DNA of 55,191 nucleotides from an uncultured Candidatus Saccharibacteria bacterium (GTDB lineage: Bacteria > Patescibacteriota > Saccharimonadia > Saccharimonadales > CALMSM01): assembly GCA_937872425.1 (NCBI GenBank), contig CALMSM010000149.1, forward strand, positions 1-55,191, written 5' to 3'. This document shows, in pieces, positions 5,530 through 55,191 of this stretch (the stretch's first letter is position 1; each line of letters begins with the position of its first letter). The translations under genes were made by a program, and so were the position numbers. The notes beneath the pieces are model-generated. The model saw only the letters and a list, made by a program, of their open reading frames with translations. It was not told the DNA's origin and searched no databases.

Positions 5530-5544
5530 ACGGGGGGAATTGTA

Positions 5545-5739
5545 ATGGCTGAAAACGAGAGCATTCACGCATTGCTTATGATGTCAGAGTTGTTGAGACT
5601 TTTACATGGATTAAAAGGCGAAGATAGAAGCGAGAAAGCGAGACGGTATGCCGTGACCATCACGGAGATGGAGAAGGTTTTCGCTTATTTCAATACGTTC
5701 GTGGTTCGTGCCGACACCGATGAAGTGGGCGACAACTAA
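5545..5739 (+). CDS. Hypothetical protein (64 aa)
   Basis: ORF in operon context with a TAATG overlap to the next gene. Confidence 0.4.
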   Translation: MAENESIHALLMMSELLRLLHGLKGEDRSEKARRYAVTITEMEKVFAYFNTFVVRADTDEVGDN

Positions 5740-6458: not shown

Positions 6459-6790
6459 AGTTTTTAGTATGCGAAAGGCAAGAATCGCCGGGGTGCGATT
6501 ATACCATTGGGTGTGGCATGCGATACGGATTCATAGACGCCGAAAATATTGACGATGCAATTCAAAAGACTGTTTTCCCCGATGGCCCTGACGAGCTGCC
6601 TACCTTTTTATGGGATGGGGGTATGGCGGAGATTTTGATAGTTCAGATAGATGCATCCACATCCTATAGCTGGGTAGATATAGATTCATTAAAGGCCCAG
6701 CACGATGAGGCCGAATCAGAGGAAAAACGGAAAGCCACAGAAGTAAATGAACGGGCATTACTAGACAAGTTGCGGAAGAAATACGCGTGA
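6455..6790 (+). CDS. Hypothetical protein (111 aa)
   Basis: ATGA overlap upstream and GTGA overlap downstream. Confidence 0.4.
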   Translation: MKFLVCERQESPGCDYTIGCGMRYGFIDAENIDDAIQKTVFPDGPDELPTFLWDGGMAEILIVQIDASTSYSWVDIDSLKAQHDEAESEEKRKATEVNERALLDKLRKKYA

Positions 6791-7938: not shown

Positions 7939-8518
7939 ATCGTTACGGCAGGCTTTTGGTTATTTTTACCAAAACGAATTGTCCATGCTGAAGTCGTTAG
8001 TCTACCTATGCCCATCGTCACCTATCACTGTGGTCAATATCGGCGCGGGCGCTGGCACATCCGGCTTGGCTTTTTTAGAGACACGCCTCGACCTTCGCCT
8101 GCACACCGTGGATATTACCGACAAAAGCAGTCCGTTCGGATGCCTACACGCCGAACGAGAAGTATGTCAAGCGGCTGGCTTTACGCTCGGTGATAGATGG
8201 CATCAGCACCACATGGACAGTAAACAGCTCGCCCAGTGGTGGGATTATGGGCCGATAGACGTATGTTTTATCGATGGAGATCATACCTACGAGGGCGCAA
8301 GCGGCGATATTGTGGGCTGGTTGCCACACATGCGGACGGGTGGCTTTATGGCCGTGCATGATTATCGTAAGCAGGATGTACCGAGACCTGATGACGGTCA
8401 GGTTAGGCCGAGCAAAGAACTTTGTTCGGATGTAGATGTGGCCGTGGATGAATTTCTAAAATCACAGTTTGAAGTTTTTGCTTTGGTTGAATCGTTGATT
8501 GTGTTCCAGGTGAAATGA
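7922..8518 (+). CDS. Class I SAM-dependent methyltransferase
   Basis: VVNIGAGAGTSGLAF motif I and an FIDGDHTYEG motif typical of small O-methyltransferase-like enzymes. Confidence 0.75.
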   Translation: MAHTSESLRQAFGYFYQNELSMLKSLVYLCPSSPITVVNIGAGAGTSGLAFLETRLDLRLHTVDITDKSSPFGCLHAEREVCQAAGFTLGDRWHQHHMDSKQLAQWWDYGPIDVCFIDGDHTYEGASGDIVGWLPHMRTGGFMAVHDYRKQDVPRPDDGQVRPSKELCSDVDVAVDEFLKSQFEVFALVESLIVFQVK

Positions 8519-8692
8519 TGAAACAATCGATTGCAGAGTTTGCAGCTTCAATAAAGGATTTGCAAATTTCTATAGCAAAGAGCGTTCCCTTCACCTTGTT
8601 TTTTCGGATTGTAAGTTTTTTGGATTGGTTAAGCCGAACTATAGATGAAATTTCGATTACACTGGTCAAATGGTGGTATCAAGCAAAATGAT
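8435..8692. repeat. Direct repeat copy 1 (about 258 bp)
   Basis: Covers the 3' end of the methyltransferase gene plus a small ORF. It is near-identical to 9114-9373. Confidence 0.85.
8515..8691 (+). CDS. Small ORF (58 aa) inside repeat copy 1, not in ORF track
   Basis: MMKQSIAEFAASIKDLQISIAKSVPFTLFFRIVSFLDWLSRTIDEISITLVKWWYQAK. The reading frame is preserved in both repeat copies despite a 3-nt indel. Confidence 0.35.
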   Translation: MMKQSIAEFAASIKDLQISIAKSVPFTLFFRIVSFLDWLSRTIDEISITLVKWWYQAK

Positions 8693-9074
8693 GAGTAGAT
8701 TCAAACGACCTGAGCCTAGCGACGCATCGCCCCAGCAAGTGCTAGATGCCATCGGCGCTATCACTGATTGGGATTGGGAAACGGGATATTCATTCGCTCA
8801 TATAGTTTTGGATGACGTAAATTTGCTAGATAGGCATATTCTATACTGTCTTCATCCACAATGGATTAGCGACGTAATGATGGGGCGAATGGATGACAGC
8901 GTAAAGGAGCATAAGACGTTCGATGATTTAAATGATCATCAAATCAATATTTACCGTCACGCAATCGAACATATGGTGGAAATTGTTACCCTCCTCAATT
9001 GGCTGTTGAATGTGCCAGAGGACACAAGATCGATTGCTGAAGATTTGCATCACGGCACGGATGAGGAACAATGA
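8688..9074 (+). CDS. Hypothetical protein (ORF track start 8670; ATG 8688 overlaps upstream stop)
   Basis: Its N-terminal KRPEPSDASP resembles KRPEPPSDSYAP at the start of the 9572 gene. Confidence 0.45.
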   Translation: MMSRFKRPEPSDASPQQVLDAIGAITDWDWETGYSFAHIVLDDVNLLDRHILYCLHPQWISDVMMGRMDDSVKEHKTFDDLNDHQINIYRHAIEHMVEIVTLLNWLLNVPEDTRSIAEDLHHGTDEEQ

Positions 9075-9113
9075 ACCTAGCACAAGATTAGGCCGCACCC
9101 ACTGGAATGGCAC

Positions 9114-9373
9114 GATGTGGATAAGGCTGTGGATGAATTTCTTAAATCTCAATTCGAGGTATTTGCTTTGGTTGAATCGTTGATTGTGTTCCAGGTGAAA
9201 TGATGAAACAATCGATTGCAGAGTTTGCAGCTTCAATAAAGGATTTGCAAATTGCCCTAGCAAAGAGCGTTCCCACCTTGTTTTTTCGGATTGTAAGTTT
9301 TTTGGATTGGTTAAGCCGAACTATAGATGAAATTTCATCTACTCTAGTTGGATGGTGGTATCAGGTGAAATAA
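9114..9373. repeat. Direct repeat copy 2 (about 260 bp)
   Basis: Begins with a relic of the methyltransferase C-terminus (DKAVDEFLKSQFEVFALVESLIVFQVK) and then a second copy of the small ORF. Confidence 0.85.
9200..9373 (+). CDS. Small ORF (57 aa) inside repeat copy 2, not in ORF track
   Basis: Paralog of 8515-8691 with an in-frame 3-nt deletion. Confidence 0.35.
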   Translation: MMKQSIAEFAASIKDLQIALAKSVPTLFFRIVSFLDWLSRTIDEISSTLVGWWYQVK

Positions 9374-9606
9374 TGGTCTACTTGCACTATGTTCGACATG
9401 GGATAATCTACATGGATGCGTGTGACGATACAGCGGAAGCCGTCGAACAGGCGGCATATCTGGAAGGAGATGGCCTGGCATCTGTCGATTGTGTCAAGGA
9501 TAGTGATGGTAACATTATCCTTGGTAATGCGATGTTGTGGAAGGGCATAGCGGGTATTTGGAGGGAATGGGATGAATCTAGCACAAGAAATGGCAAAGCG
9601 CCCTGA
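9373..9606 (+). CDS. Hypothetical protein (ORF track start 9352)
   Basis: TAATG overlap with the small ORF. 77 aa when counted from ATG 9373. Confidence 0.4.
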   Translation: MVYLHYVRHGIIYMDACDDTAEAVEQAAYLEGDGLASVDCVKDSDGNIILGNAMLWKGIAGIWREWDESSTRNGKAP

Positions 9607-10324
9607 GCCACCTAGTGATAGCTATGCGCCAAACTGGGATTACTGGCGGCATAATCTATGGAGCCGAGCGCAGACCGATGCACCTGAGAATTTTTACAAA
9701 TGGCCGTGCGTGTATCACACAATGCTCGTGGAGCACTGGCGTAGTATTATCACGGAGACCGAGTATAGGTATGTTCTGCGATTCATAGATGTTGACAAAT
9801 GGGCTTTAATACTAACCGAAGATGGCCGCAATCAAATCCACCAACTATACCACCTCCTCCGCTGGCAAGAAGCCAGCGGCAAGCGCATCGCAGATATGCG
9901 GTCAATCTGCGAGTTCGGCGGCGGCTATGGCGCTATGGCGTTGGTGTGCCACCGGCTAGGTTTCAAAGGCGACTACTACATCTATGACCTACCTGAGTTT
10001 TGTTTGCTTCAGCAATGGTATTTAGAGCAAAACGGCATCAAGGTCAAGCACTCAAGTGAGATTGTGCCGCTTGACGTTGAACTGATGATTGCTTGCTATT
10101 CATTAAGTGAAACCGATTACGCTGAACGTGATGAGTTTTTAGACATGGTACATGCAAGCAATCATTTGTTTCTCTACAGCAATAAATTTGAGAAGTTTGA
10201 CAACATCGATTATTTTCAGCAACTTGATTTTGGTGGTCACTGGCAACATAGCCATATTGAGCATTTGCCGCCTGAGAGTTGGTATAGTTTTGGATGGGGT
10301 GATGAGGCGAAATATCATGACTAA
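9572..10324 (+). CDS. Putative SAM-dependent (sugar O-) methyltransferase
   Basis: ICEFGGGYGAMALV is an ExGxGxG-like SAM motif; the ORF lies within the sugar island. Confidence 0.5.
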   Translation: MNLAQEMAKRPEPPSDSYAPNWDYWRHNLWSRAQTDAPENFYKWPCVYHTMLVEHWRSIITETEYRYVLRFIDVDKWALILTEDGRNQIHQLYHLLRWQEASGKRIADMRSICEFGGGYGAMALVCHRLGFKGDYYIYDLPEFCLLQQWYLEQNGIKVKHSSEIVPLDVELMIACYSLSETDYAERDEFLDMVHASNHLFLYSNKFEKFDNIDYFQQLDFGGHWQHSHIEHLPPESWYSFGWGDEAKYHD

Positions 10325-10829
10325 ATTTGTATCTGCCGTGCTTAGTTCACTGGCGCTCGTGATGTTTATGTCTGCCAAAGCCGACTCAACAGTCATTCAA
10401 TGGGACGGTAGCTGTTACAGTAGTGAGGTTGCTACTACCGGCCTTGTCACAATCACGAAAACTTACAACGGCTGGTATTATGATGTGTTGATGACCGGTA
10501 ATTTATCTATAGATGGCACGCCGGATTGGATACGGGCACAAGAATTACCGCCCGGTTTTCTACCTGACACAGACGACCTAACAATGTACGCCTGTGACAT
10601 TGCCTACAACAGTAATGATGTTCGATATTGGCCTATAAGCGCTGCAATGGATGGCACCTACGGCAACGGCGCATTGTATTTTGATAATCACAACGGTGCC
10701 TATGAATTACTCTGCAAGTGGCGCACCACGCAACGCAATCCGTCAATCAGCGTGTGGAATAGCTGCGCCGGTATCAAGGTGCTGAACTATGTACCGTTTC
10801 GCTTGTATGTGCCAGTGATGAGCAACTAG
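10317..10829 (+). CDS. Secreted Cys-containing protein (signal peptide)
   Basis: Internal start MTKFVSAVLSSLALVMFMSAKA/DSTV gives a classic signal peptide. The upstream part of the listed ORF overlaps the previous gene. Confidence 0.55.
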   Translation: MTKFVSAVLSSLALVMFMSAKADSTVIQWDGSCYSSEVATTGLVTITKTYNGWYYDVLMTGNLSIDGTPDWIRAQELPPGFLPDTDDLTMYACDIAYNSNDVRYWPISAAMDGTYGNGALYFDNHNGAYELLCKWRTTQRNPSISVWNSCAGIKVLNYVPFRLYVPVMSN

Positions 10830-11681
10830 ATGCTAGTCAATCTATTTGACTTCAACTTTCGTCAATCCGTGTGTTCGGTGGCCTATCAGACACCCGAACA
10901 TATCCAGTACGTGCGAGACCTGACCACGTTTGATGGTGTGACCATCTTCACCGATGGCTATATCACCGATGGCAGCGTTGACCGTGTACGTAGTCGGTAC
11001 AAAATCGCATGGTTGCACGAGCCATACTGTTTGCATCCTGACACCTATCAGGCAGCATTACTCGACGCACACAAGTTTGACCTGGTGCTGACCTACTATC
11101 AGCCATACTTAGACCTGGGGCGTAATTTTCGCTTTTGTCCCTATGCCGGCACGTGGATAGACAAAAAGGACTGGGGTATCAAGCCGAAAACGAAATTATG
11201 TTCCATGCTCATCGGTAACAAAATGAGCACAGACGGGCATCGCATCCGGCATGACATCGCCAACATGATAGAGCGCGAAGGATACCCCGTGGACTTTTAT
11301 GGCAGCCGTGGCACACCGGTTGGGTATGGGCAAGATACCAAATACAAGGTGCTGGCCGATTACGCTTTTAGTATTTGCACGGAAACATGCTACGAAGAAA
11401 ACTTGTTTACCGAATGGCTACTAGATTGTTTTGCGCTGGGCACAATCCCGATTTACTGGGGGTGCCCAAATCTCAAACGGTTCTTTATCCATGCTGGTAT
11501 AGAACAGTTTGGTTTGGTAAAATCACTGGGATTGTCTTATTTGGATATTGTTTTAACGATGTTGTCGATGAGAAGTTATGAGAATTTTATTGAGTCGGCA
11601 CACAACAATCTAAACATAATGCAAAAATACGCCGTTACCGAGGACTGGCTATACCTGAACATGCTAAAGGAATTTGAATGA
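10830..11681 (+). CDS. Glycosyltransferase with GT10 (fucosyltransferase)-like C-terminal motif
   Basis: YAFSICTETCYEENLFTEWLLDCFALGTIPIYWG resembles the FxLxFENSxxxxYxTEK...IP(I/V)YWG region of alpha-1,3-fucosyltransferases. Confidence 0.45.
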   Translation: MLVNLFDFNFRQSVCSVAYQTPEHIQYVRDLTTFDGVTIFTDGYITDGSVDRVRSRYKIAWLHEPYCLHPDTYQAALLDAHKFDLVLTYYQPYLDLGRNFRFCPYAGTWIDKKDWGIKPKTKLCSMLIGNKMSTDGHRIRHDIANMIEREGYPVDFYGSRGTPVGYGQDTKYKVLADYAFSICTETCYEENLFTEWLLDCFALGTIPIYWGCPNLKRFFIHAGIEQFGLVKSLGLSYLDIVLTMLSMRSYENFIESAHNNLNIMQKYAVTEDWLYLNMLKEFE

Positions 11682-11785
11682 TTTGTGACATAACGGTAGA
11701 GCATATACTTGCGCTAATTCTTGGGCAGATAATCGGCATGACAGTAATATTTATGGCATGGCAGTGTGTAAAAAAATATTTATGA
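11678..11785 (+). CDS. Micro-ORF, 35-aa hydrophobic peptide, not in ORF track
   Basis: MICDITVEHILALILGQIIGMTVIFMAWQCVKKYL. It has ATGA overlaps at both ends, bridging two enzyme genes. Confidence 0.3.
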   Translation: MICDITVEHILALILGQIIGMTVIFMAWQCVKKYL

Positions 11786-12858
11786 TCAACGTCTTCCAGC
11801 CAAACGCCGGTCAAGCCGAGCTGTCCGCCATCGCTGAAACGTTTGAATCCAACTGGCTAGGCAAAGGTAAGCGAGTTGCAGAGTTTGAGGCAGCTTGGGC
11901 CAAACACATCGGCACCACACCGGATCACGTTGTCTCAACCACATCAGCTACGGAAGGATTGTTCCAAATCTGTGAGCTAATCGGGTTGCACCGTGGCGAC
12001 AAAGTGATCATGCCAACCGTCTCATTTATCGGCGCTGCTAATGCCGTGCTTGCTACCGGCGCAACGCCTGTATTCTGTGACGTAGACCGATACACGCTGA
12101 ATCCTAGATTGTCTGATATTCAAGCGGTCTACACCAAACACACTTTTGCGCTTATCCTACTACACTATGGCGGCTCTACTCAGGAGCTGGGCGAGATTCG
12201 ATGCTGGTGCAATGAGAATGACGTGGTAATGATAGAGGATGCCGCTTGCGCGCAGGCTACAGTTTACCGAGGTAAAGCGGCTGGCACCTGGGGCAAGTTT
12301 GGCGTGTGGTCGTTCGATGCCATGAAAGTGATTACGACTGGCGACGGCGGCATGATATACTGTGAGGATGCCAACGACGCGAAACGTCTACGCCAGCGCA
12401 TGTATATGGGAATGGAAGAATCAAGCGGACTGAGTTCGACCGGGGATAAGTGGTGGAAATTTTCAACAAACCACCCTGGGCGGCGTGCTATCATGAATGA
12501 TATGGCGGCTGGTATGGGACTGGCACAGTTACCGAAGTTGGCCGGATTTATCGATAGGCGTAAAAGTATATCATCTGTATACCAAACGGTAGAGGGTGTG
12601 TATTTTGATTGTGGCATATTGCCGTATTATTTCTTTTGGATTCAAACGCTGAACCGTGATGGCCTCGCCAAGCATCTAAAAGCCAACAACATCTATACCA
12701 CCTTTCGTTACTACCCACTACACTGGGCGCTAAAAACCGGCGATAGCTTGCCCAACGCAGAATGGGCGGCAAACAACACGCTATTGTTGCCGCTGCACCA
12801 AGCGCTTAGTGATGACGATGTGATGTTCGTGTGCGATAAGGTTAAGGAGTTTTTTTAG
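11758..12858 (+). CDS. DegT-family sugar aminotransferase (Lys-type; perosamine-synthase-like class)
   Basis: VSTTSATEGL, MPTVSFIGA and IEDAACA motifs, plus SFDAMKVITTGDGG with the catalytic Lys present. Alternative start at ATG 11782. Confidence 0.8.
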   Translation: MAVCKKIFMINVFQPNAGQAELSAIAETFESNWLGKGKRVAEFEAAWAKHIGTTPDHVVSTTSATEGLFQICELIGLHRGDKVIMPTVSFIGAANAVLATGATPVFCDVDRYTLNPRLSDIQAVYTKHTFALILLHYGGSTQELGEIRCWCNENDVVMIEDAACAQATVYRGKAAGTWGKFGVWSFDAMKVITTGDGGMIYCEDANDAKRLRQRMYMGMEESSGLSSTGDKWWKFSTNHPGRRAIMNDMAAGMGLAQLPKLAGFIDRRKSISSVYQTVEGVYFDCGILPYYFFWIQTLNRDGLAKHLKANNIYTTFRYYPLHWALKTGDSLPNAEWAANNTLLLPLHQALSDDDVMFVCDKVKEFF

Positions 12859-13800
12859 TTGAGAGTTAAAATGATACCCTCCGCTCTCAACCTGACATCA
12901 GGCGAAAGCGGCATCCACACGATATGTAGAAAATGGACAGAGCACGGTGCATCTGTCGGCATTGATTTTGTGGAGCCAAATGAGTCAACCTATGATTTGC
13001 TAGCCGTTCATGCGGGCATGAGCAAAGAGTACGCCACAGCCAACGCTCCGCTGGTCAGTCACCTTCATGGAATCTATTGGACGGCGGATTACGATGCTCA
13101 CTACTGGGAGTGGAAAGCCAACCGGGATGTAATCGACTCTATCCGTTATGCCACATCCGTTACCGTGCCAAGCGCCTGGGTGGCTGAACCATTACAACGC
13201 GATATGCACCTGAATCCTTACATCCTACCGCATGGCATCGACTGGCAAGAGTGGCAGCACAAAGAGCCGAACGAAGGATACGTGCTGTGGAATAAAAACA
13301 GATCGGGTGTTGATGTATGTAGTCCCATTGCTGTGGGCAAGCTAGCGCAACGCTTCCTGCAAGTGCCATTTATGACCACCTTTGCACCAGACAACGCCAC
13401 GCCAAATATTAAGGCAACTGGGTTGCTTCCTCATGCCGAAATGAGGGTGGCTGTGCAACGGTCAGCGGTCTATCTGGCATCGGTCAAAGAAACGTTCGGC
13501 ATCGGCATTCTTGAAGCGATGGCTAGTGGCGTGCCGGTCTTGGGCTTTGCACATGGCGGCATTATGGAGATGGTCGAGCATGGCGTGAACGGCTATCTCG
13601 CCAGACCTGGCGATTATGAGGATTTAGCCGAGGGCCTAAACTATTGCTTAAAGCACCGTGATACGCTGGGCGCTAACGGGGCTGAACTTGCCAAGCTGTT
13701 TACCTGGCAAAGCGTCATGCTGAAGCTACGTGGCATCTATGACGCCACGCTTAGAATGTTGGCGCATGGCAGGCCGTACGCGATAGATGAGGGATCATGA
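12859..13800 (+). CDS. GT4-family glycosyltransferase (GT-B)
   Basis: The ETFGIGILEAMASGVPVLG...VNGYL motif (E-x7-E). Start is TTG 12859 or ATG 12871. Confidence 0.8.
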   Translation: MRVKMIPSALNLTSGESGIHTICRKWTEHGASVGIDFVEPNESTYDLLAVHAGMSKEYATANAPLVSHLHGIYWTADYDAHYWEWKANRDVIDSIRYATSVTVPSAWVAEPLQRDMHLNPYILPHGIDWQEWQHKEPNEGYVLWNKNRSGVDVCSPIAVGKLAQRFLQVPFMTTFAPDNATPNIKATGLLPHAEMRVAVQRSAVYLASVKETFGIGILEAMASGVPVLGFAHGGIMEMVEHGVNGYLARPGDYEDLAEGLNYCLKHRDTLGANGAELAKLFTWQSVMLKLRGIYDATLRMLAHGRPYAIDEGS

Positions 13801-14219
13801 GATTAGTTGAAATTTCCGAAGAAACGATACGCGAGCAGATTAAAGAATTGCCAGAGCGGTGGCTTCGGTACGCCACAGTACATAAATCTGAGGTGAATCC
13901 AATCCGGGGTGGAATAGATTGGAGTTTAGGCGCATACAGCACTGATGCAAACGAGGGGGACTGGAAAACTTTCCGGTGGAACGGTCTGACATGCGAGGAA
14001 ATATATAAGGGATTAAAAAATCTGCCAGATAATGCTGGCGATTCAGATGTCATAAAAATTATGGGCGAATATAGGATCAACGAATGGGTTAGGCTGCCAT
14101 TGTGTTGGTCTTGTCAATTAAGAATGAAAAAATATGTCGAATTAGCGGAGGATTCGGATAATGGTTCAATTTGTTTTTGTGAATCCTGTATACGAAAAGC
14201 GTTGCAATTACTGAAATGA
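13797..14219 (+). CDS. Hypothetical protein with C-terminal Cys cluster
   Basis: CWSC...CFCESC motifs; ATGA overlaps on both sides. Confidence 0.45.
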   Translation: MRLVEISEETIREQIKELPERWLRYATVHKSEVNPIRGGIDWSLGAYSTDANEGDWKTFRWNGLTCEEIYKGLKNLPDNAGDSDVIKIMGEYRINEWVRLPLCWSCQLRMKKYVELAEDSDNGSICFCESCIRKALQLLK

Positions 14220-16240
14220 CAGACATTTTACTGCCATTGCCATTGGTCAGTGTCGTGATCCCTTGTTACAACAAATCTGCATCTATTGCTCGTACTATTA
14301 GTAGCGTCAAGAGGCAGTCTTTGTCCAATCTTGAATGCATCATTGTTGACGATGGCTCTACTGACAATTCAAAAGAAATCATTCTGGACGCAATTAAGAA
14401 TGATCGTCGATTTCATTATATCTACCAGGATAATCAGCGCGTGGCGGCGGCACGGAATAAGGGATTTAGGCAATCAACGGGTCTCTATCTATGCATGCTC
14501 GACGGAGATGACGCCATAGCTCCCCTGTTTTTAGAGTTATGCGTTAGAGCGCTAGAGAATGATCGTTCGATGGGTATTGCCTATAGTGGATTGCATTACA
14601 TTTTACCAGATGGAGCGCAGGGTTTAAGCGGATGGCCGGGGCGATTTGATTACAATGTAGTCCTGACAGGCGGCAACCCATTACCGACCTGCAATGTCGC
14701 GCGGCGTGATGTGTGGGAACGAACAGGCGGACAACGGAGCCGATATTGCGAAAGTGGCGCTGGCGAGGAAGATGCTGAGATGTGGTTGCGCGTTGGCGCA
14801 TTAGGGTTCAATGCCATCCAGATTGAACCGGCTGCAACATTGGTTGATATATATGCCGAACTGAAAAAGGTTTTAGGTAGGGAGCCGACCAGGGATGAAA
14901 TCATAGGCACGGGACGAATCAATGGTGAAAATTACGAAAAAGCCGTTAATTCTATGTTTGTTTACTCGTGGAAGTCTGGTCAGGTGAGCGGTAATCCACA
15001 GCACGTAAAATCTAAATATCAATCAGGTCATCCGTGGATGACGGACAAGCGCCACCCGTTCGCTTCGATGGCGCCTGCGACAGAGGGTCGTCAATCGCAC
15101 GCCGTCCGGCAATACGATGAGCCAGCGGTATCGGTGATTATCCCCTGTGGGTCTGACCACGTGCAATATTTGGTAGATGCGCTGGACAGCCTTGAGGCGC
15201 AACAGTATCGCAAATGGGAAGCGATTGTCGTCTTTGACACAGGTGAACGCAATTATGATGCGCTGTTGATGGCTTACCCATTTGTGCGGCCAGTCTATAC
15301 CAACAAAGTAGGCGCTGGCGCCGCACGCAACGCCGGGGCAAAGATTGCTCGCGCCAAGCTGCTATTGTTCCTCGATGCCGATGACTGGCTTAGACCTATC
15401 ACGCTGGAGAAGATGCTAATAGCCTGGAACAATAGTCAAGCGATTATTTACGGCGATTACTACGGCCATGCATTTATTGAGCCAAAAGAAGCCGAGCGCC
15501 TGAAGATGGGCGAGCGCCTTGTATCTTACAACGCCAAAACGCAAGCGGCGGTGATGATTCACAATGCCTCGAATTATGATTGTGAGGAGGCCATTCGACA
15601 ACCACGCTTGATTAAGCCGGATCAGTTCTACATCTGGAACCTGATTTGTTCGCTTGTGCCTAAAGTGTGGCATGATGAAATTGGTGGCTTTGATGAATCA
15701 ATGGCGTCTTGGGAAGACTGGGATTACTGGCTTAGAATGGCGCGGGCGGGCAAGTGCTTCGAGCGCATCACAGAGCCGTTGGTCAATTATCGTTTTTATA
15801 CTGGAAACAGGCGTGAAAGTGGTAGACAAATTGCGGAAAGTCTGCTACAATATATGCGAAGAAAATATGAGGAGATTCCAGCAATGGCGTGTAGCGGGTG
15901 CGGTGGCGGTCGGCCACAACAACAGAATCCAGTAGTTCAGGCGGCGGCATTAGCCATGCCCTTACAGGCCAGCGGCCAACCGGCGCAAAATGTGACAAGC
16001 GCTGACATTGTGTGGGTGAAAGTGGCCGGCAATCGAGTTGGCACACGCCCAACAGTGGGTATGGTAACACGTCAGCAATATGGCTATAAGGATTCTAATA
16101 GCCCAGCGTTCAAAATGTTTCTGGCCGATGTTCGAGCACAACCGACCATTTACATGATTGTGCCTGACCCATCATCGGCTAGAGTGGCAGAATTGACACC
16201 ACAGCAACAGCCGTTGGGTGAGCCAATTAGGATTGCATAG
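14216..16240 (+). CDS. Two-domain GT2-family glycosyltransferase
   Basis: Two GT-A modules. The first is VSVVIPCYNK...IIVDDGSTDNS...DGDD; the second is VSVIIPCGSD...LDADDW...WEDWDYWLR. Confidence 0.85.
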   Translation: MTDILLPLPLVSVVIPCYNKSASIARTISSVKRQSLSNLECIIVDDGSTDNSKEIILDAIKNDRRFHYIYQDNQRVAAARNKGFRQSTGLYLCMLDGDDAIAPLFLELCVRALENDRSMGIAYSGLHYILPDGAQGLSGWPGRFDYNVVLTGGNPLPTCNVARRDVWERTGGQRSRYCESGAGEEDAEMWLRVGALGFNAIQIEPAATLVDIYAELKKVLGREPTRDEIIGTGRINGENYEKAVNSMFVYSWKSGQVSGNPQHVKSKYQSGHPWMTDKRHPFASMAPATEGRQSHAVRQYDEPAVSVIIPCGSDHVQYLVDALDSLEAQQYRKWEAIVVFDTGERNYDALLMAYPFVRPVYTNKVGAGAARNAGAKIARAKLLLFLDADDWLRPITLEKMLIAWNNSQAIIYGDYYGHAFIEPKEAERLKMGERLVSYNAKTQAAVMIHNASNYDCEEAIRQPRLIKPDQFYIWNLICSLVPKVWHDEIGGFDESMASWEDWDYWLRMARAGKCFERITEPLVNYRFYTGNRRESGRQIAESLLQYMRRKYEEIPAMACSGCGGGRPQQQNPVVQAAALAMPLQASGQPAQNVTSADIVWVKVAGNRVGTRPTVGMVTRQQYGYKDSNSPAFKMFLADVRAQPTIYMIVPDPSSARVAELTPQQQPLGEPIRIA

Positions 16241-34915: not shown

Positions 34916-34921
34916 TAGCAT

Positions 34922-34956
34922 AAATAGCGGGATAGTGATGAGCTATCCCGCTATTT
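34922..34956. terminator. Bidirectional intrinsic terminator between convergent genes
   Basis: 14-bp stem AAATAGCGGGATAG / CTATCCCGCTATTT with A/T tracts on both sides. Confidence 0.7.
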
Positions 34957-35073
34957 ATTTCTCCACTACCACACGCTGCGGCCTGCGCTTGTCCACAGCG
35001 ACAAGCACGTTTGCGCCTGATACTCTCACTACAATGCCATTGCGCCGGTAGGGTTTGCCATTACGTTATTCTC

Positions 35074-36693
35074 CTATGCTACTAATTTCATGCCTTTTGG
35101 TATACTGTCGGAAAACCCAAATTTCCCTGCAATTTTAGATTTGTCCCCCTGTAGTGAATACATGTGAAACCACTTAAACGCTTCAGTTTTGAATGTATCA
35201 GGGTCTCTACCGTCAAGATTCGACATTGCCTTGCGTAGCTGCGCTTGCGTGGTTTCTGGATAGATAGACAGATAGCCTTTACAAAAACTCTCCCAACACC
35301 GTAAACGCATAAACGAACGCTCGAGGGAGGGGGGTATTGGTAAAAAATCAACAGAAACCCCACCGGCGTTTATAGCGTTTACTGGCGTTTCTACCACCTG
35401 TAAACGGTCGTTTTCGCCATCGTTTACAGGTGCTTCTGTGTCGTTTATCGTTTCTACTGGCGTTTTCAAACATCGCCACTGCAACGGCGGATACTCACGG
35501 CGGATATCAATCAACTCTGCTGTGTGCCAAGCATTATAAAACACATTATCTTGGCTGAACACCCCTACATGAGGCAAGCGATCAACATGATACTCGTTGA
35601 ATGCGTTGGCCACCATCCCCTTGAGCTTGTAGCATGTCACGAATTTGGCGTTGCCACGCATTTGGGCTGTCCATTTTTCAGGCGCCTGGTCAATCAGGCA
35701 CAATACAATACCAGTAGCGCGGCCTAATCGAAACAATCGGTCAACCTTTTGCGCTAAATCTGCTCTAGCGGCCTTGTCCAACGTCATCCACACAGACCCA
35801 AATTCCTCTATAATGACAAATAGAGTAGGCGGGCGCTTGCCAGTTGCCTTGTAAATTGTCGATAGGTTATTTTTCTGCAACCACCCCCAGCGCCTATCAA
35901 AGATTGTCATCAGTTGATCGAATTGATTGACGACAGTACCAACACTCATAGCGTGCCACTCGGCCACGCCATTAAACGCACGCCAGTCTATGCCCTCTTT
36001 GCCATCCAACACGATGGGGTGCAAGTTATACTTGCGCGCATAGGCTACCATAAGCATTGCCGTGCTTTCGGTTTTACCGCTACCGGTGCCACCAATGATT
36101 GCGGCGTGCGTGGTTCGGTAGTCAAACATCAACATTTGGCCGGCGAGTTTACTGGCTTCAGGTGTCGGCTGAATATCGGCAGCTTGCCCGATAATCCACG
36201 CACGCTCTGTCGATTGATTGATGGCCTGCTGTAGTGTAATGGCGGCTGGCATTTGCTCTACGGCTGGTTGTTCGGTCGTGTATCGCGCCATCTCTTTTGC
36301 TTCCCGTTCCTCGGCTGCACGTAGCAAATTTCCAACCTGCAACGATTTGTGCTCTTTCTGTTTAGCCTTATATTCTTTCTCTTCCGCATACACGCCCTCA
36401 GCGCGCTTGGCGGCTGCTACACTCAGTTTGGCAGGGTATTTTACCATTACATAAACTTTTGCAAATACATAGGCGGCAACGCACACAATAGTCAAAAAAA
36501 GCGCTGATGGCGCTGCCCACCACATGGCCGTGGCCCAAGCGGATGATTCAACAGGCGGCGCATACGCTACTACGCCCACCGGCTGCGCCGCCGTCAGATT
36601 GTCGATGGCGATGTTTAATGGCCTCAATCCGCCAGCGGCGATTGTGCCAAGCACGCCGATGCCAGCGGTTAAAATGGCGTTTTTGAATCCCAC
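35074..36693 (-). CDS. FtsK/SpoIIIE (TraB-like) DNA translocase ATPase with N-terminal TM segments
   Basis: Walker A IIGGTGSGKTES and Walker B LFVIIEEFGS, with a hydrophobic N-terminal 90 aa. Confidence 0.8.
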   Translation of the reverse strand: MGFKNAILTAGIGVLGTIAAGGLRPLNIAIDNLTAAQPVGVVAYAPPVESSAWATAMWWAAPSALFLTIVCVAAYVFAKVYVMVKYPAKLSVAAAKRAEGVYAEEKEYKAKQKEHKSLQVGNLLRAAEEREAKEMARYTTEQPAVEQMPAAITLQQAINQSTERAWIIGQAADIQPTPEASKLAGQMLMFDYRTTHAAIIGGTGSGKTESTAMLMVAYARKYNLHPIVLDGKEGIDWRAFNGVAEWHAMSVGTVVNQFDQLMTIFDRRWGWLQKNNLSTIYKATGKRPPTLFVIIEEFGSVWMTLDKAARADLAQKVDRLFRLGRATGIVLCLIDQAPEKWTAQMRGNAKFVTCYKLKGMVANAFNEYHVDRLPHVGVFSQDNVFYNAWHTAELIDIRREYPPLQWRCLKTPVETINDTEAPVNDGENDRLQVVETPVNAINAGGVSVDFLPIPPSLERSFMRLRCWESFCKGYLSIYPETTQAQLRKAMSNLDGRDPDTFKTEAFKWFHMYSLQGDKSKIAGKFGFSDSIPKGMKLVA

Positions 36694-36695
36694 AA

Positions 36696-36872
36696 TTATT
36701 GCACCCCAACATAAACCAGTAACAAACCGACCGTTGCAAACGCCAGCGTCCGCCCTAACCAGACCATCGTTAATCGCCTCGACCGCCTATCATTCGACGC
36801 AGCATAGGCTAGCGTCATGCCCGAACAAATGACACCACACATGGCACAAAGAAAAATGATAGCGAGATTCAT
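36696..36872 (-). CDS. Small two-TM membrane protein (internal start of listed ORF)
   Basis: MNLAIIFLCAMCGVICSG... preceded by a GAGGA RBS. Confidence 0.4.
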   Translation of the reverse strand: MNLAIIFLCAMCGVICSGMTLAYAASNDRRSRRLTMVWLGRTLAFATVGLLLVYVGVQ

Positions 36873-36933
36873 GGCTAGTCCTCGATTGCGAACGTACACA
36901 ACAGCATGGCGAATAGGAGCATGTAGATCATAG

Positions 36934-37713
36934 CTACTCGTTGATCCGATAATCTGTTCCGCCATTGGCAAGTACGCCAGACGCAACTAATTGCGGCAAG
37001 CGACCGATATAGGAGCCATCCTTTTGCTTGCGCTTAAGTGTGGTTTGTGCGATGCCGGTAAACTTGCTGATAGCATAGGGTGTCGCATTGCCTGCACCGA
37101 TAGCAGCGATGATTGCTTGCGTAGTATCATCATGCGCAACCTCAACTACTTTCGCCGGTTGTGGTTCAATTACTTGCATTGACTCAGCAAGCATCGCACT
37201 CACTTGCTTGCGTGGCTGCTTGCGTACTTGCGTGCGCATACTGCGTGCATTGTGCCAACGTAGCAGGCCAATGCCTACCGACGTGCAAGCGCTCAATACT
37301 GGCAATGTTGCAAGCACCGTTGCGCCACCCGCCATTTCTTCGATCTTGTACACAATCACCATAACCACAATCACGCATACAAGCGAGACGGAACACATTG
37401 CAATCAGTGGATACTTGTACTGTTCATCCTCCTGGTAGCCGTCCCATTGTTTGAGCGTGATCTCGAACATGATAAAAAATATGCACTCAACAGCAAGCGA
37501 CAATGCAAGTGCCGCGCCATTGCTCCAATGCAATGATGTAAGCGCGGCATTGTAGACACCTAGCGCATTAGGCACAGGCACAATCAGCGGAATACTACGT
37601 GACACAATCTCTAGCGCTGTGTTTCCCATGTGCTCCGCCACCCGTTGCAATATCACCATGATTGCGCCGAAGTGCTTGTCAATCCATAGTACATAATTTG
37701 GTTGTTCGTTCAT
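36934..37713 (-). CDS. Polytopic membrane protein with C-terminal HTH-like tail
   Basis: About five hydrophobic segments; the C-terminal ATPYAISKFTGIAQTTLKRK segment is HTH-like. Confidence 0.5.
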   Translation of the reverse strand: MNEQPNYVLWIDKHFGAIMVILQRVAEHMGNTALEIVSRSIPLIVPVPNALGVYNAALTSLHWSNGAALALSLAVECIFFIMFEITLKQWDGYQEDEQYKYPLIAMCSVSLVCVIVVMVIVYKIEEMAGGATVLATLPVLSACTSVGIGLLRWHNARSMRTQVRKQPRKQVSAMLAESMQVIEPQPAKVVEVAHDDTTQAIIAAIGAGNATPYAISKFTGIAQTTLKRKQKDGSYIGRLPQLVASGVLANGGTDYRINE

Positions 37714-37820
37714 TCTCTCCCCCTACGCAGCCGCTTTCGTTGCGCCTCGATTAACGCCATCAGCACGGCCACTTCTGCGACGGCAACCGCAATCAAACTG
37801 GCTATAATAATGTCACTCAT
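37710..37820 (-). CDS. 36-aa single-TM micro-ORF, not in ORF track
   Basis: MSDIIIASLIAVAVAEVAVLMALIEAQRKRLRRGRE, with ATGA overlaps at both ends. Confidence 0.35.
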   Translation of the reverse strand: MSDIIIASLIAVAVAEVAVLMALIEAQRKRLRRGRE

Positions 37821-38029
37821 TGCAATCCTCGATTGTGGCGATGTTTTTCAGGTTGACAGTTTTTACATACCCACATCTGGGGCTTACCACGCTTTGACCA
37901 CCCGCCGTTGTGAAAAATCTTAGTAGCAGCCGTTAGTGACCGACGAACAACCTGCTCTGATTTTCCGCAAACATTACAGGTGATTGTGCGTAGATTTGTT
38001 CCACGCTCTGAAGTAATTTTTCCCCTCAT
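37817..38029 (-). CDS. 70-aa zinc-ribbon protein (internal start of listed 179-aa ORF)
   Basis: CNVCGK...CKNC motif. Its ATG overlaps the stop of the 38026-38256 ORF. Confidence 0.45.
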   Translation of the reverse strand: MRGKITSERGTNLRTITCNVCGKSEQVVRRSLTAATKIFHNGGWSKRGKPQMWVCKNCQPEKHRHNRGLQ

Positions 38030-38256
38030 GCCGCACACCCCACGGCTACTGGCCAGCGGCGGCCATGATATGATTGCGTTGCGTTGGTGTAGGTTCGGCG
38101 CGAGCGCGCCACCTTGAGCACCGGTTGTGGCTGCGGAAACAGGACTAGATAAAGCAACGCACCGGCCACGGCTGCGGCAATGCACAGCCACGCCAGCGGG
38201 GGAACGAATGAAGCCAGGTAGCCAGAAAATAGGAATAAAACTGTGGTGATGTTCAT
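38026..38256 (-). CDS. 76-aa two-TM membrane protein
   Basis: MNITTVLFLFSGYLASFVPPLAWLCIAAAVAGALLYLVLF, with AGGAGA 7 nt upstream. Confidence 0.45.
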   Translation of the reverse strand: MNITTVLFLFSGYLASFVPPLAWLCIAAAVAGALLYLVLFPQPQPVLKVARSRRTYTNATQSYHGRRWPVAVGCAA

Positions 38257-38373: not shown

Positions 38374-38676
38374 TTATTTATCTTCTAAGCTCTCGCAACC
38401 ATCAAGTTTTACCTTGATATAATTAACACTACCGATCAAGTCCTTTACCAAATTGAGTAGTTCCGCAATCAACTTAGCACTACTGCCCACCTTCGTTTTC
38501 ATGCCGCCGCCATCTTCGCGCGCTATCTGATATTCGCGCAAAGCCTTGCGGATCAAGCTGCTGGCGTCCGGCATTTCCGGGTGCGCATCATGGATGGATT
38601 TCAATACACCGACATCGTATGATGTCGGCCTGAATCCGATGGTTTTACCAGCTTCCAAATCGATAAAATTGTTCAT
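38374..38676 (-). CDS. Hypothetical protein (100 aa; internal start)
   Basis: GAGGAG RBS ahead of MNNFIDLEAGK. Confidence 0.45.
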   Translation of the reverse strand: MNNFIDLEAGKTIGFRPTSYDVGVLKSIHDAHPEMPDASSLIRKALREYQIAREDGGGMKTKVGSSAKLIAELLNLVKDLIGSVNYIKVKLDGCESLEDK

Positions 38677-38874
38677 CGCTCCTCTTAATCTGCTATCATC
38701 GGTTAATTTTGCCGCTTTATGATAGCAGATTACTGTCCGCTTGTCAATCACCCGCTGCCAGAATACGCACAACCACACTGCCAGATTCCCAACAATCTTA
38801 CTGCCAGAAATCTGGCAGCGTTTTGGGGATAGTCATCGTGTTGTCGCAATAAAAAAGCCGGGACAATCCCGGCT

Positions 38875-39300
38875 CTACCCACACCCACAGCAAACGTCAT
38901 TCGCCACTGTTGACCGAAACACGGCGCCGCACTCGCCACAAATACAATCCCACTCATGCCCATATTCGTACCATGCTAGCCCGTCTAGTCGCTCCGTGTT
39001 GGTCAGTGCTAGAGCGTGCTCGATGCCTAGTCCTCGGTTGCCATCCTCGAAAAACGCTTTGAGCATCTCGGCATAATGACGGCTAATTTCGGGGTCGCAG
39101 CCTACCGGGATAACGGGTATGTGACTCTGCGGCCAGCCAGCGGCTTGGAGCACCGGCTTACCGCTGCGCGTGCGGCTACCTGGTAATTTGACCTCAACAA
39201 ACCAGTACATTTGGCCTAGCGTGTTGCGCCTGCGTGCGGTGTCTAGGATCTTGGCTATCTCAGTTTTGGTAGTGAGATAGGTGCGGTCAAAAATTGTCAT
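38875..39300 (-). CDS. Hypothetical protein with C-terminal Cys cluster
   Basis: The WDCICGECG...CCGCG motif. Confidence 0.45.
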   Translation of the reverse strand: MTIFDRTYLTTKTEIAKILDTARRRNTLGQMYWFVEVKLPGSRTRSGKPVLQAAGWPQSHIPVIPVGCDPEISRHYAEMLKAFFEDGNRGLGIEHALALTNTERLDGLAWYEYGHEWDCICGECGAVFRSTVANDVCCGCG

Positions 39301-46051: not shown

Positions 46052-46165
46052 ATGGACGAAGAAGAAAATACCGAAGTTGACGAGACCGGTGATGAACTCG
46101 ATATTGACGATTTGGATTTAGAGCAACTGGAAGAATTGCCAACGCCCCCAGAGGGTGAGCATTAA
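46052..46165 (+). CDS. 37-aa extremely acidic micro-ORF, not in ORF track
   Basis: MDEEENTEVDETGDELDIDDLDLEQLEELPTPPEGEH has 18 D/E residues and no K/R. AAGGA lies 6 nt upstream, and its stop overlaps the repressor stop. Confidence 0.35.
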   Translation: MDEEENTEVDETGDELDIDDLDLEQLEELPTPPEGEH

Positions 46166-46644
46166 AAAAGCTTGACTCCATTATCAAGCTCCCATTTTTC
46201 TAGCCCATCCTCGCTCAGTTGTTGCCCATATTCTAATAGGCGCCGCTTTTCACGTTCGATTGCATCTGTCGCCATATCTGCGATTTTAGGCAGATGACGA
46301 ACGATTGTGCGTCTTTCTGGCTTGCCCAGCGCCAGAAGATATTTTGCCGCCTCCTCAACCTCTGGAGGGTAGGCCACGCGCTGCCCTGAATCGTCAACCC
46401 ATTGCGGCTTGTCAGCACCGGGGGCGCATAGCAGATAATCCACAGTGACCTTGAAAAATTGAGCCAGCATGACGGCATTTTCGACGCTTGGTTCAATCGT
46501 GCCCAATTCCCACGCGCACAACGTTGTGTTGCCAATTTCAAATGGTAACTTTTCCACTAACTGAATTTGCGTAAGGCCCAAGCGCTTACGCAAGCCCTTG
46601 ATCCTTTTCCCGCTTCTAATTGCTCTTGTCTCATTTTCTACCAT
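46162..46644 (-). CDS. XRE-family HTH repressor (CI-like position)
   Basis: LRKRLGLTQIQLVEKL...AWELG HTH_3 motif. ATG 46644 has a GAGGA RBS; the listed TTG start at 46674 lies inside the rightward promoter. Confidence 0.75.
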   Translation of the reverse strand: MVENETRAIRSGKRIKGLRKRLGLTQIQLVEKLPFEIGNTTLCAWELGTIEPSVENAVMLAQFFKVTVDYLLCAPGADKPQWVDDSGQRVAYPPEVEEAAKYLLALGKPERRTIVRHLPKIADMATDAIEREKRRLLEYGQQLSEDGLEKWELDNGVKLF

Positions 46645-46667
46645 TTCTGTATCCTCGAAATTCGCTA

Positions 46668-46695
46668 TTGACAAAAGTAAAAAATTGAGTATAAT
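46668..46695 (+). promoter_or_regulatory. Rightward promoter TTGACA-16-TATAAT (PR-like)
   Basis: TTGACA at 46668-46673 and TATAAT at 46690-46695. Confidence 0.65.
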
Positions 46696-54265: not shown

Positions 54266-55191
54266 ATGATTGATCCTCGTTTTGCAGACTTCACGAAGTG
54301 TCTTTGGCGCGGCGGCTCTTTCGCTTATTGGTGGTCTCCAGATGGTGACGAAGGAAATTTGTCTTCATGGTTTCCAGTAGATAAACAGCGCTCGGTGTGG
54401 AACTCCAACACAATTAATATTTATTTTGGCGTCCACCCGTCCATTGTAAAGCGCGGAATGCGCCAGCGGGCATTACTAGAAACCATCGAAGCCGTCAACT
54501 GTTTATTTGCCGAGTTTGATTTAATCGAGGGTCAATCAAAAGAACATTTGTTGCAGTCCATTAGCCAGTTAGACACACCGCCCAGTGTGGTTATATTCAG
54601 CGGGGGCGGCTATCATACATATTGGCTGCTAGAACAAACCTATCATATTGACAGTCCAGATGCTCGACAGCGCATTATGGACATTCAATACGCCTGGGTT
54701 GATTTTGTTGGCAGTGATAACGCGGCGAAGGACATTACGCGCGTCTTGCGCGTACCAGGCAGTTACAACCGTAAACCACAGTACGATCCAGACTATCCAC
54801 AGGTGCAGATTGTTAAATTCGACATGGATTTGATTTATAGTTTGGATGATTTTACCAAACAGATTGAACCATTAATTGAGCAGACAAAAACAAAACGGGT
54901 TGCAGTAGCAAATCAGGACACCGTACCTGTGGAATTAGACGACCAAACCATCCTTGAGAAAATGCAGCAGAAAGACTCTGTGGCCGCTGCTCTGTGGTCT
55001 GGCGATATGTCAGACTACAAAGACGATCACAGCGACGCTGACATGGCGCTGTGCAATCGTTTGGCGTTTTGGTTTGGCCGAGACAAAGACCGTATTGACA
55101 AGGTGTTTCGCCGGTCTGGGCTATTTCGTCCAAAATGGCTTAGAGACGATTACCGCAATGCTACTATTGATAAAGCCGTGGCGTCATGCGC
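54266..55191 (+). CDS. Primase-polymerase (prim-pol) with PriCT-like region, 3'-truncated by window end; absent from ORF track
   Basis: The frame is open from ATG 54266 to the window end. Motifs: FSGGGYHTYW, VLRVPGSYN, DHSDADMALCNRLAFWFGRD..IDKVFRRSGLFR. Confidence 0.75.
   Translation, partial: MIDPRFADFTKCLWRGGSFAYWWSPDGDEGNLSSWFPVDKQRSVWNSNTINIYFGVHPSIVKRGMRQRALLETIEAVNCLFAEFDLIEGQSKEHLLQSISQLDTPPSVVIFSGGGYHTYWLLEQTYHIDSPDARQRIMDIQYAWVDFVGSDNAAKDITRVLRVPGSYNRKPQYDPDYPQVQIVKFDMDLIYSLDDFTKQIEPLIEQTKTKRVAVANQDTVPVELDDQTILEKMQQKDSVAAALWSGDMSDYKDDHSDADMALCNRLAFWFGRDKDRIDKVFRRSGLFRPKWLRDDYRNATIDKAVASC

Follow-up and report, generated by a model that had tools for sequence, protein, structure and literature searches.

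A candidate membrane-anchored DNA pump with a word array inside its own gene, found with membrane partner genes in a tailed phage from a Saccharibacteria metagenome bin

FtsK/SpoIIIE-like genes are annotated in many phages, and the literature that we found assigns them no function. Here we describe one such gene and its neighbours in a stretch of 55,191 nucleotides (nt) of tailed-phage DNA, hereafter the window (the whole of contig CALMSM010000149.1, or C149, of assembly GCA_937872425.1, binned as an uncultured Candidatus Saccharibacteria bacterium). The gene (positions 35074-36693, minus strand) encodes an FtsK-family ATPase with a predicted membrane anchor, called the pump below, and closes a seven-gene module that also encodes several membrane proteins. 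Within it, the DNA coding for a disordered protein linker carries a dense array of the short word AAACG; the array is under selection at the DNA level, arrays of lineage-specific words recur at the equivalent position in relatives, and the word follows the C-terminal domain of the pump rather than its motor. Because these parts add up to the logic of certain Streptomyces plasmids, we propose by analogy with their TraB/clt systems that the module may constitute a double-stranded DNA (dsDNA) pump that loads on the array in its own gene and works with membrane partners, a reading to which we give about an even chance of being correct.

The pump is a protein of 539 amino acids (aa) read from a GTG start. 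It scores 30.3 bits against the Pfam family FtsK_SpoIIIE (PF01580; cut-off 24) and matches phrog_1358 at 1.3e-17, and its Walker A motif (GGTGSGKT; G201-GSGKT208), Walker B motif (IIEE297) and Arg-finger-like residue (R326) occupy positions that are conserved across 28 homologues. Hydropathy and an AlphaFold2 model built on the same 28 homologues (mean pLDDT 77, above 90 in the motor) place a strong transmembrane helix at residues 54-85 (51-85 in the model), with a weaker hydrophobic segment on its N-terminal side; further along, the model has a coiled coil at 101-140 and a RecA-type motor at about 150-400, which a disordered linker of residues 414-448 joins to a helical C-terminal domain (455-512). 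Placement of the protein relied on fold ranking and a profile census, identities to TraB, TcpA, EssC and packaging ATPases being below 20%. The best Foldseek matches in the PDB were EccC (1.4e-11), EssC, TcpA (6.7e-11, target TM-score 0.56) and the FtsK motor (6e-10), with HerA and viral packaging ATPases orders of magnitude weaker. The original prediction, made from the sequence alone, of an FtsK/SpoIIIE-family ATPase with Walker A and B motifs and an N-terminal membrane anchor is borne out by the Pfam score, the motifs, the fold and the predicted transmembrane helix.

The word array lies inside the pump gene, in the DNA that codes for the disordered linker. Eleven copies of AAACG/CGTTT fall within 163 bp (35303-35465), nine of them within 99 bp (35367-35465), against a background of 2.3 copies per kb counted on both strands. 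The copies include a perfect 12-nt inverted repeat (35395-35406 and 35421-35432), are written in two registers (GAA-ACG and xxA-AAC-Gxx), and are inverted in three cases. When the linker was recoded synonymously, with the peptide fixed and codons redrawn from the gene's own usage, the observed count was reached in none of 5000 recodings (mean about 3.4 versus 9), and the same procedure applied across 70 open reading frames (ORFs) of the 68.5-kb phage genome, which comprises the window and an adjoining contig (C12), gave the pump gene as the densest word cluster. Since recoding never reaches the count and the pump gene ranks first among the 70 ORFs, the array is under selection at the DNA level. 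A k-mer pile-up scan of the whole genome placed CGTTTA/AAACG second, behind an origin-like iteron set on C12.

The arrangement is not confined to the window. Eleven pump loci, drawn from a family of several hundred members, were compared as DNA (the window, L002, L004, L005, L010, L011, L012, L013, L099, L100 and L101), and in ten of them an array occupies the equivalent position between the motor and the C-terminal domain. The word is lineage specific: AAACG in the window and L099, GAAACG in L002, CGAACG in L100, L101 and L013, GGGAA in L005, GGAATG in L010, GGACCC in L004 and CCGTTC in L012. Eight of the nine GGACCC copies present in 21.8 kb of L004 fall in the linker (gene 10001-11827). None of 5000 recodings reached the observed count in the window, L005, L010, L012 and L013, nor for the 6-mer of L002; in most loci both strands carry the words, which fall into two or three reading frames, and each lineage retains one word although the encoded linker peptides differ. 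The arrays show DNA-level selection that overrides the choice of codons and amino acids within a disordered protein linker. The word of L004 overlaps GACCC, which is reportedly the core of the recognition sequence of pSVH1 TraB. The window's GAAAC(G) in turn resembles the clt repeat of pIJ101, G(C/A)AAC (PMC3583192). Both likenesses are probably coincidental.

These patterns bear directly on one rival explanation, in which low-complexity linkers that evolve fast and duplicate readily give rise to the arrays as a by-product, the ATPase serves a task unconnected with DNA recognition (for example, protein export of the EssC/EccC kind), and some of the small transmembrane proteins are holin-like. 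Such an explanation draws on the duplicated units within arrays (a repeat, D3, in the window, and the spacing in L012), on the position of EccC and EssC as top fold matches, though by a small margin, and on the likeness of a 76-aa protein of the module, with its two transmembrane helices and basic tail, to class II holins; moreover, no endolysin or holin was located elsewhere (30 ORFs of the window and C12 scanned with Pfam, and PF07486), so that holins among the small transmembrane proteins stay conceivable. It is hard to reconcile with words that occupy two or three frames and both strands in most loci, with recoding results of 0/5000 in six loci, and with the keeping of one word per lineage while peptides differ. 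Furthermore, the pump has a single ATPase domain and no FHA domain, WXG-like substrates are absent, and in L005, L017, L099 and L100 the small transmembrane genes accompany the pump rather than any lysin. We regard this explanation as improbable.

If the array serves as a docking site, the candidate reader is the C-terminal domain of the pump, which is conserved and modelled as a compact helical bundle (pLDDT above 90). Comparison of relatives amounts to a natural swap experiment, with near-identical motors bearing different reader domains and different words: the window pump and homologues P0006 and P0003 share motors that are 90-93% identical, have C-terminal domains that are only 28-43% identical, and carry three different words. 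Conversely, the window pump and P0004 (motor 59%, C-terminal domain 92%) share one word, as do P0006 and P0015 (motor 60%, C-terminal domain 88%). The word therefore tracks the C-terminal domain, and not the motor, through natural domain swaps. Our leading interpretation is that the C-terminal domain reads the array word; it stays an interpretation because array and domain are adjacent in the DNA and linkage alone could give the co-variation. Within the family, the first helix of the domain is variable (E..S.MRLRC in the window, against VRSSFVRNGS). Identification of the domain as a winged helix or an FtsK-type gamma domain was not supported, as it is all-helical and has neither a Pfam family nor a fold match. 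The winged-helix protein encoded beside the pump (see below) was also considered as the reader and ruled out, because it shows no co-variation with the word: the partner is nearly the same in L099 and L005, whose words are AAACG and GGGAA, and differs between L099 and the window, which both use AAACG. A free-standing 123-aa paralogue of the C-terminal domain is encoded in L002 (6658-7029), 0.5 kb downstream of the pump gene; the domain thus exists on its own as well.

The pump gene is accompanied by a set of small and polytopic membrane proteins, whose transmembrane helices were predicted from hydropathy (for the pump, also from the structure model). The original prediction described six ORFs here, all on the minus strand, and these stand. 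Their chaining by ATGA overlaps holds at three junctions (38026-38029, 37817-37820 and 37710-37713), but the genes for the 259-aa and 58-aa proteins are separated by 61 nt, and the latter from the pump gene by 2 nt. The most upstream of the six encodes the 76-aa protein (38026-38256); homologues of 75-78 aa lie at the equivalent place in L005, L017 and L099, with the tail ...YHGRRWPxAVGC conserved. It is followed by a 70-aa Cys4 zinc-ribbon protein (37817-38029), recognized by its CxxC...CxxC pattern and a weak match to phrog_9007, whose gene is an insert peculiar to the window lineage and absent from the close relatives L005 and L017. Next comes a 36-aa micro-ORF with a single predicted transmembrane helix (37710-37820; ATGA overlaps at both ends); L005 and L017 have a transmembrane micro-ORF of 38-39 aa in the equivalent position, unrelated in sequence. 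The fourth and largest partner, of 259 aa (36934-37713), has three to four transmembrane helices, a variable basic linker and a C-terminal winged helix, for a profile of its last 60 residues hits the corresponding domains of Lrp/AsnC, ArsR and MarR proteins at E values of 0.006-0.03; the helix-turn-helix-like tail noted in the original prediction is upheld by these matches. By the positive-inside rule, this winged helix and the pump motor are both predicted to be cytoplasmic. Last before the pump is a 58-aa protein with two transmembrane helices and a basic loop (36696-36872), whose gene has an 86%-identical counterpart in L100, overlapping there the beginning of the pump gene, and none in L005, L017 or L099. 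Since the zinc-ribbon and 58-aa genes are missing in relatives, the conserved core consists of the two-helix protein, the micro-ORF, the polytopic winged-helix protein and the pump, which is the gene order found in L005 and L017 (75-78 aa, 38-39 aa, polytopic protein, pump). The 259-aa and other partner proteins matched no family in a Pfam scan.

The gene for the polytopic protein carries a second, weaker word array, with six copies of GCAAG/CTTGC at 37173-37231 and eight in the 150 nt coding for its linker. There (A)CGCAAG runs in tandem three to four times, in two registers, through the basic linker TQVRKQPRKQV. GCAAG forms the second-densest 5-mer cluster among the 70 ORFs, with weaker statistics (13 of 2000 recodings reach the count), and the evidence from relatives is mixed; the array may be a docking site for the protein's own winged helix.

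Transcription signals bracket these genes. The original prediction assigned them to an early leftward operon, an assignment that is too simple: the module has its own promoter, flanking terminators and an additional first gene. An intrinsic terminator at 38854-38876 on the minus strand (a GC-rich stem of 10 bp and then TTTTTTATT) marks where the preceding stretch of the operon ends, after a 141-aa gene (38875-39300). Downstream of it lies a sigma-70-type promoter, TTGACA-17-TATCAT (38719-38747, minus strand), with a TG before the -10 element and 11 of 12 consensus matches, and a perfect, operator-like 14-nt inverted repeat (TAATCTGCTATCAT and ATGATAGCAGATTA; 38686-38732) covers the -10 element and the leader. 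The first gene (38374-38676, minus strand) encodes a soluble protein of 100 aa and starts at an ATG with the Shine-Dalgarno sequence AGAGGAG, 33 nt past the -10 element; the 134-aa version of this ORF listed by the gene-finding program, with a GTG start, would begin upstream of the promoter. Judging by its sequence pattern, the 100-aa protein is possibly a regulator of the ribbon-helix-helix type, although it had no match in profile hidden Markov model or PDB searches, and a regulator may bind the inverted repeat at the promoter. Small proteins that look like DNA-binding proteins likewise head the pump cluster in L002, L011 and L013. At the other end, a perfect 16-bp hairpin (inverted repeat I3; 34920-34958) forms a bidirectional terminator that is shared with convergent plus-strand genes. 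Because terminator, promoter, operator-like repeat, Shine-Dalgarno sequence with ATG, and end hairpin bracket it, the block from about 38747 to 34920 reads as a self-contained, separately promoted and regulated seven-gene membrane unit.

Pumps of this kind form a sizeable family. A word-indexed search returned 28 relatives, all metagenomic, and a profile search of 1.84 billion representatives returned 221 clusters at E <1e-30 and 505 at E <1e-10, most of them 500-650 aa long and covered from the N terminus through the C-terminal domain. Neither the window phage nor the pump found a match in INPHARED (megablast; tblastn at E 1e-3) or among IMG/VR viral contigs. The motor profile also recurs five to eight times within giant proteins of 2260-2940 aa (P0055, P0078, P0089, P0118, P0137, P0139, P0154 and P0165); one giant multi-motor protein, on a 30-kb contig, was named S-DNA-T family FtsK/SpoIIIE by JGI. 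All pump loci that extend past the immediate neighbours are phage-like, with DnaB, methylase, terminase or tail genes near, and in all loci the module adjoins replication genes. Small transmembrane genes are the usual neighbours of the pump, and in eight of the eleven loci (the window, L005, L004, L010, L013, L002, L099 and L100) a polytopic protein that ends, after a linker, in a helix-turn-helix is encoded no more than a few kb away. L017, in which the end of the contig truncates the pump gene, has such a protein too; the contig of L101 offers little besides the pump gene.

Such a separately promoted membrane unit might also be a moron-like device for superinfection exclusion or host takeover, blocking incoming DNA or disturbing the host's division or chromosome segregation. 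Many exclusion proteins are small inner-membrane proteins, the module has its own promoter, operator and flanking terminators, and phrog_1358 belongs to the PHROG category 'moron, auxiliary metabolic gene and host takeover'. This account leaves unexplained a word array on the phage's own genome that tracks the C-terminal domain, and the module keeps a fixed place among early or replication genes in very divergent phages instead of occupying variable moron slots. Its similarity to defence proteins is only generic: the PADLOC matches of the pump are P-loop stretches (SspH at 1.9e-11 over 150 residues, mad8 and HerA), unaccompanied by any partner match, for which reason a defence system was rejected as an identity for the pump. 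An exclusion or takeover function consequently seems to us improbable.

The phage carrying the module is of siphovirus type, with a tape-measure protein of 1634 aa, a sugar and aminotransferase island, and a fusion of an SNF2 helicase with a methylase. Its NrS-1-like primase-polymerase gene runs past the end of the window and is completed on C12, a contig of 13.4 kb (L009) whose positions 1-77 are an exact 77-mer overlap with window positions 55115-55191 and whose tetranucleotide composition correlates with that of the window at r = 0.94. C12 carries TerS (9212-9583) and TerL (9576-10883; phrog_2, 1.6e-31), a ParB-like gene and a 726-aa gene at the portal position. Since C12 joins the window and carries both terminase genes, the phage genome is at least 68.5 kb long and has an ordinary terminase, and the pump is therefore not its packaging motor, in agreement with the original prediction that a membrane translocase would not be needed for packaging. 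Closure of the window on itself as a circle was ruled out, because its end continues into C12. No overlap was found between the end of C12 and the start of the window; as C12 ends in a terminator hairpin with a T-run and the window begins with a T-run, the map probably closes there.

The same map weighs on a further rival, that the pump completes genome entry: encoded by the first DNA to arrive, it would draw in what remains of the 68.5 kb, much as T5 has a second-step transfer and phi29 a pull phase. Such a role would suit a motor that has a predicted membrane anchor, a putative loading site in the phage's DNA and a host-type promoter. However, the module stands mid-map, about 30 kb from TerS and TerL and so from the likely genome ends, and behind a terminator, and is therefore unlikely to be among the first DNA to enter or the first genes to be expressed; a motor on the cytoplasmic side could act only on DNA that had already come in, and we know of no pause signals. 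Completion of entry appears to us the least probable of the readings considered.

Other features of the genome lie outside the module. Directly 3' of the primase-polymerase stop, C12 has ten copies of TTACATACCT (1435-1652), five forward (1435-1515) and five mostly reverse (1460 and 1593-1652), around an AT-rich centre; this set is the strongest local word cluster of the whole genome and probably the replication origin. At the point where leftward and rightward operons diverge, the window encodes a 170-aa Xre-type helix-turn-helix protein (46162-46674, minus strand; HTH_3/HTH_19), a candidate repressor, though no tyrosine integrase was found on C149 or C12. Within the sugar/aminotransferase/glycosyltransferase island (4119-16240), some 265 bp occur twice (8429-8693 and 9114-9375; 88-92% identity, about 684 bp spacing).

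Binning gives no firm host for this phage, because the bin (287 contigs, 1.59 Mb) is bimodal in G+C (cellular contigs about 0.48-0.50, other contigs 0.56-0.62) and rich in short contigs of related phages (C184, C51, C280, C116, C102, C63, C129 and C140). Its cellular part is Candidatus Saccharibacteria, with an FtsK that is 84-87% identical to those of Saccharimonadales metagenome-assembled genomes (MAGs). The only genome match for the pump is a phage-like contig in a Peribacteria MAG bin; L007, a distant relative of the window phage, is binned in a Peribacteria MAG, and a TerL scan of species genomes matched one MAG. The host is probably a non-actinomycete (49% G+C).

From these observations we envisage the following mechanism. 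A hexamer-type FtsK-family pump would be held in the cytoplasmic membrane by its N-terminal helices, and its C-terminal domain would dock on the AAACG array in the linker-coding part of its own gene, thereby loading the motor on the phage's own DNA as TraB is loaded on clt. The polytopic winged-helix protein and two to four small transmembrane proteins would form a membrane partner complex, paralleled by SpdB2 and the small Spd proteins of Streptomyces plasmids, and a small regulator with the promoter operator would keep expression of the module in check. Together with these partners, the pump would move phage DNA at the membrane or hold it there. We infer DNA pumping, the assembly of a single complex and the destination of the DNA from the parts described; for the last, precedent favours a virion-independent hand-over to a neighbouring or daughter cell, and an alternative route would be the push-and-uptake model of Thermus TdtA (PMC5365140). 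Among the four roles offered by the original prediction, cell-to-cell spread (or segregation of phage DNA) fits the cis array best, while genome internalisation, superinfection exclusion and interference with host chromosome segregation gained no specific support. Exclusion, entry completion and a non-DNA role all explain the array poorly.

The rival that shares the logic of a cis array and pump is segregation or membrane anchoring of replicating or plasmid-state phage DNA with the aid of the tethered winged-helix protein and no transfer between cells, the genome being held at the membrane or septum or cleared into daughters, as by FtsK/SpoIIIE at septa or by phi29 p16.7. It would require no special host morphology and suits the position of the module beside replication genes in all loci; it stays alive because no tyrosine integrase was found on C149 or C12, so that an episomal state is conceivable, and because ParB-like genes are nearby (a ParB-type gene directly 3' of the pump in L012, and the ParB-like gene of C12). 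On the other hand, there is no ParA-like partner and no evidence for lysogeny or a plasmid state, the small transmembrane proteins go unexplained, and the localised array offers no directional cue of the kind given by the polar KOPS and SRS words (no convincing KOPS-like polar skew of the word was found across the genome). We consider segregation possible, if clearly less probable than loading of a pump in the TraB manner.

Several observations weigh against that proposal of a TraB-like loading pump. L011 has a pump and no array, a nearby polytopic partner was not seen in L011 or L012, and L015 and L016 encode a 70%-identical polytopic protein with no adjacent pump, so that the coupling of the two is loose. 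Part of the window array derives from a 24-nt duplication (the repeat D3), and the words of L012 are spaced 9-12 nt apart, mostly 12, as expected of simple tandem duplication. The C-terminal domain matches no solved fold (best E 5.2) and no Pfam family, its net charge is only 0 to +6, and its joint inheritance with the array could, as noted, be plain linkage. A tblastn search of 72,556 plasmids with the pump gave five weak matches, at 23-30% identity and spanning roughly one third of the pump, and none of them was in Streptomyces. Lastly, TraB-type transfer is established only in mycelial actinomycetes, and this contig was placed with a Saccharibacteria MAG in a bin that is mixed.

The locus nevertheless offers a testable mechanism, with a pump, a reader domain and a docking array inside the pump's own gene. 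If the pump does move phage DNA through the membrane, TraB-type dsDNA transfer would not be confined to actinomycete plasmids, and some phages would own a second, particle-free route of spread or inheritance. One may go further and suppose that a broad and hitherto undescribed family of tailed phages outside the mycelial actinomycetes (the 221 clusters at E <1e-30) carries an exchangeable 'address cassette', consisting of word array and novel reader domain, on a membrane pump that passes naked dsDNA to a neighbouring or daughter cell without virions, and that, if the host is an epibiotic Saccharibacterium or some other cell in close contact with its neighbours, competence of the recipient could finish the transfer, as in transjugation of Thermus; we think this unlikely.

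The closest known parallel is the TraB/clt/Spd system of Streptomyces plasmids (pSVH1, pWTY27 with its TraA, pIJ101 and pJV1). TraB is a membrane-associated FtsK-type hexamer whose C-terminal domain recognises 8-bp clt repeats and which pumps unprocessed dsDNA; clt loci consist of direct and inverted repeats of 5-9 bp at or inside the 3' end of the tra gene, and that of pWTY27 extends into the 3' end of traA, which codes for a protein with two transmembrane helices (PMC4447253, PMC3583192). The spd genes are small, translationally coupled and code for membrane proteins, SpdB2 is a polytopic, DNA-binding pore former that contacts TraB, and traB is toxic when unregulated and is held down by a repressor (PMC4447253, PMC3583192). 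The phage module resembles this system in having a single FtsK-type motor with membrane association (in the phage, predicted) and a C-terminal domain (in the phage, a putative recognition domain), short direct and inverted repeats clustered in cis in the 3' third of the motor gene and clt-like from their sequence, translationally coupled small membrane proteins, a polytopic winged-helix partner analogous in design to SpdB2, and expression that is probably regulated, as it is by kil-kor in the plasmids. It differs in that no kinship of the pump to actinomycete TraB could be detected by sequence, the helical bundle at its C terminus is novel and not a demonstrable winged helix, the array lies wholly within coding sequence, in the linker, and the carrier is a 68.5-kb, terminase-bearing tailed phage whose host is probably no actinomycete; the partners, which match no Pfam family, show no evident homology to Spd proteins and are like them in design. 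The TraB analogy raised in the original prediction has thus gained a clt-like array inside the gene that recurs in relatives, and has lost any claim to membership of the actinomycete TraB family by sequence.

TcpA of pCW3 (PDB 6o1w-6o1z), among the best fold matches, likewise has two N-terminal transmembrane helices followed by one FtsK-type ATPase domain. By contrast, TcpA serves a type IV secretion channel, acting on a single strand that a relaxase has processed, and its gene is not known to have a recognition array; Pfam and PHROG scans of the ORFs of C149 and C12, which left some small ORFs aside, showed no VirB4, relaxase or channel genes. Cellular FtsK and SpoIIIE share the motor fold (2ius, 6t8b), and the FtsK gamma domain reads short words (KOPS/SRS) to load the pump, but these proteins have four transmembrane helices, a long linker, alpha, beta and gamma domains and polar words spread over the genome, whereas the phage pump has one strong and one weak hydrophobic helix, no gamma-like winged helix and one local array; the bin's cellular FtsK scores 206.7 bits against the FtsK_SpoIIIE model, compared with 30.3 for the pump. 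EssC and EccC differ in their two to four tandem ATPase domains and N-terminal FHA or DUF domains, the phage pump having a single ATPase domain and aligning with EccC over one domain only, and the viral FtsK-HerA packaging ATPases (PRD1 P9, A32 and STIV2 B204) are short, soluble and the sole packaging motors of their viruses, with fold matches to B204/A32-type proteins at E values of 1e-4 to 1e-6. The design of the 259-aa partner (membrane anchor, linker and cytoplasmic DNA-binding domain) recalls phi29 p16.7, a membrane anchor for phage DNA replication that has one transmembrane helix, a different DNA-binding fold and no FtsK-type motor.

Outside the actinomycetes, a membrane-associated motor of the FtsK/HerA superfamily on a mobile element is known from ICEth1 of Thermus thermophilus, where hexameric TdtA pushes dsDNA out and the recipient takes it up by competence (PMC5365140); unlike the phage pump, TdtA is HerA-like, pairs with NurA and a restriction enzyme, and has neither a DNA-recognition domain of its own nor an array. 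The PHROG 1358 phages (p011 of Sinorhizobium phage AP-20-A and Bacillus phage proteins) are also tailed and have their own terminase, and the function of these FtsK/SpoIIIE-like proteins is described as 'not fully understood' (PMC13299392); membrane partners and an in-gene word array are not described for this group in the literature found, and our limited search found no paper on in-gene recognition arrays or reader-domain swaps for phage FtsK-like genes. By membership, the pump belongs to the FtsK/SpoIIIE superfamily and to the loosely defined PHROG 1358; it is TraB/clt/Spd-like by its features, and not a TraB by sequence.

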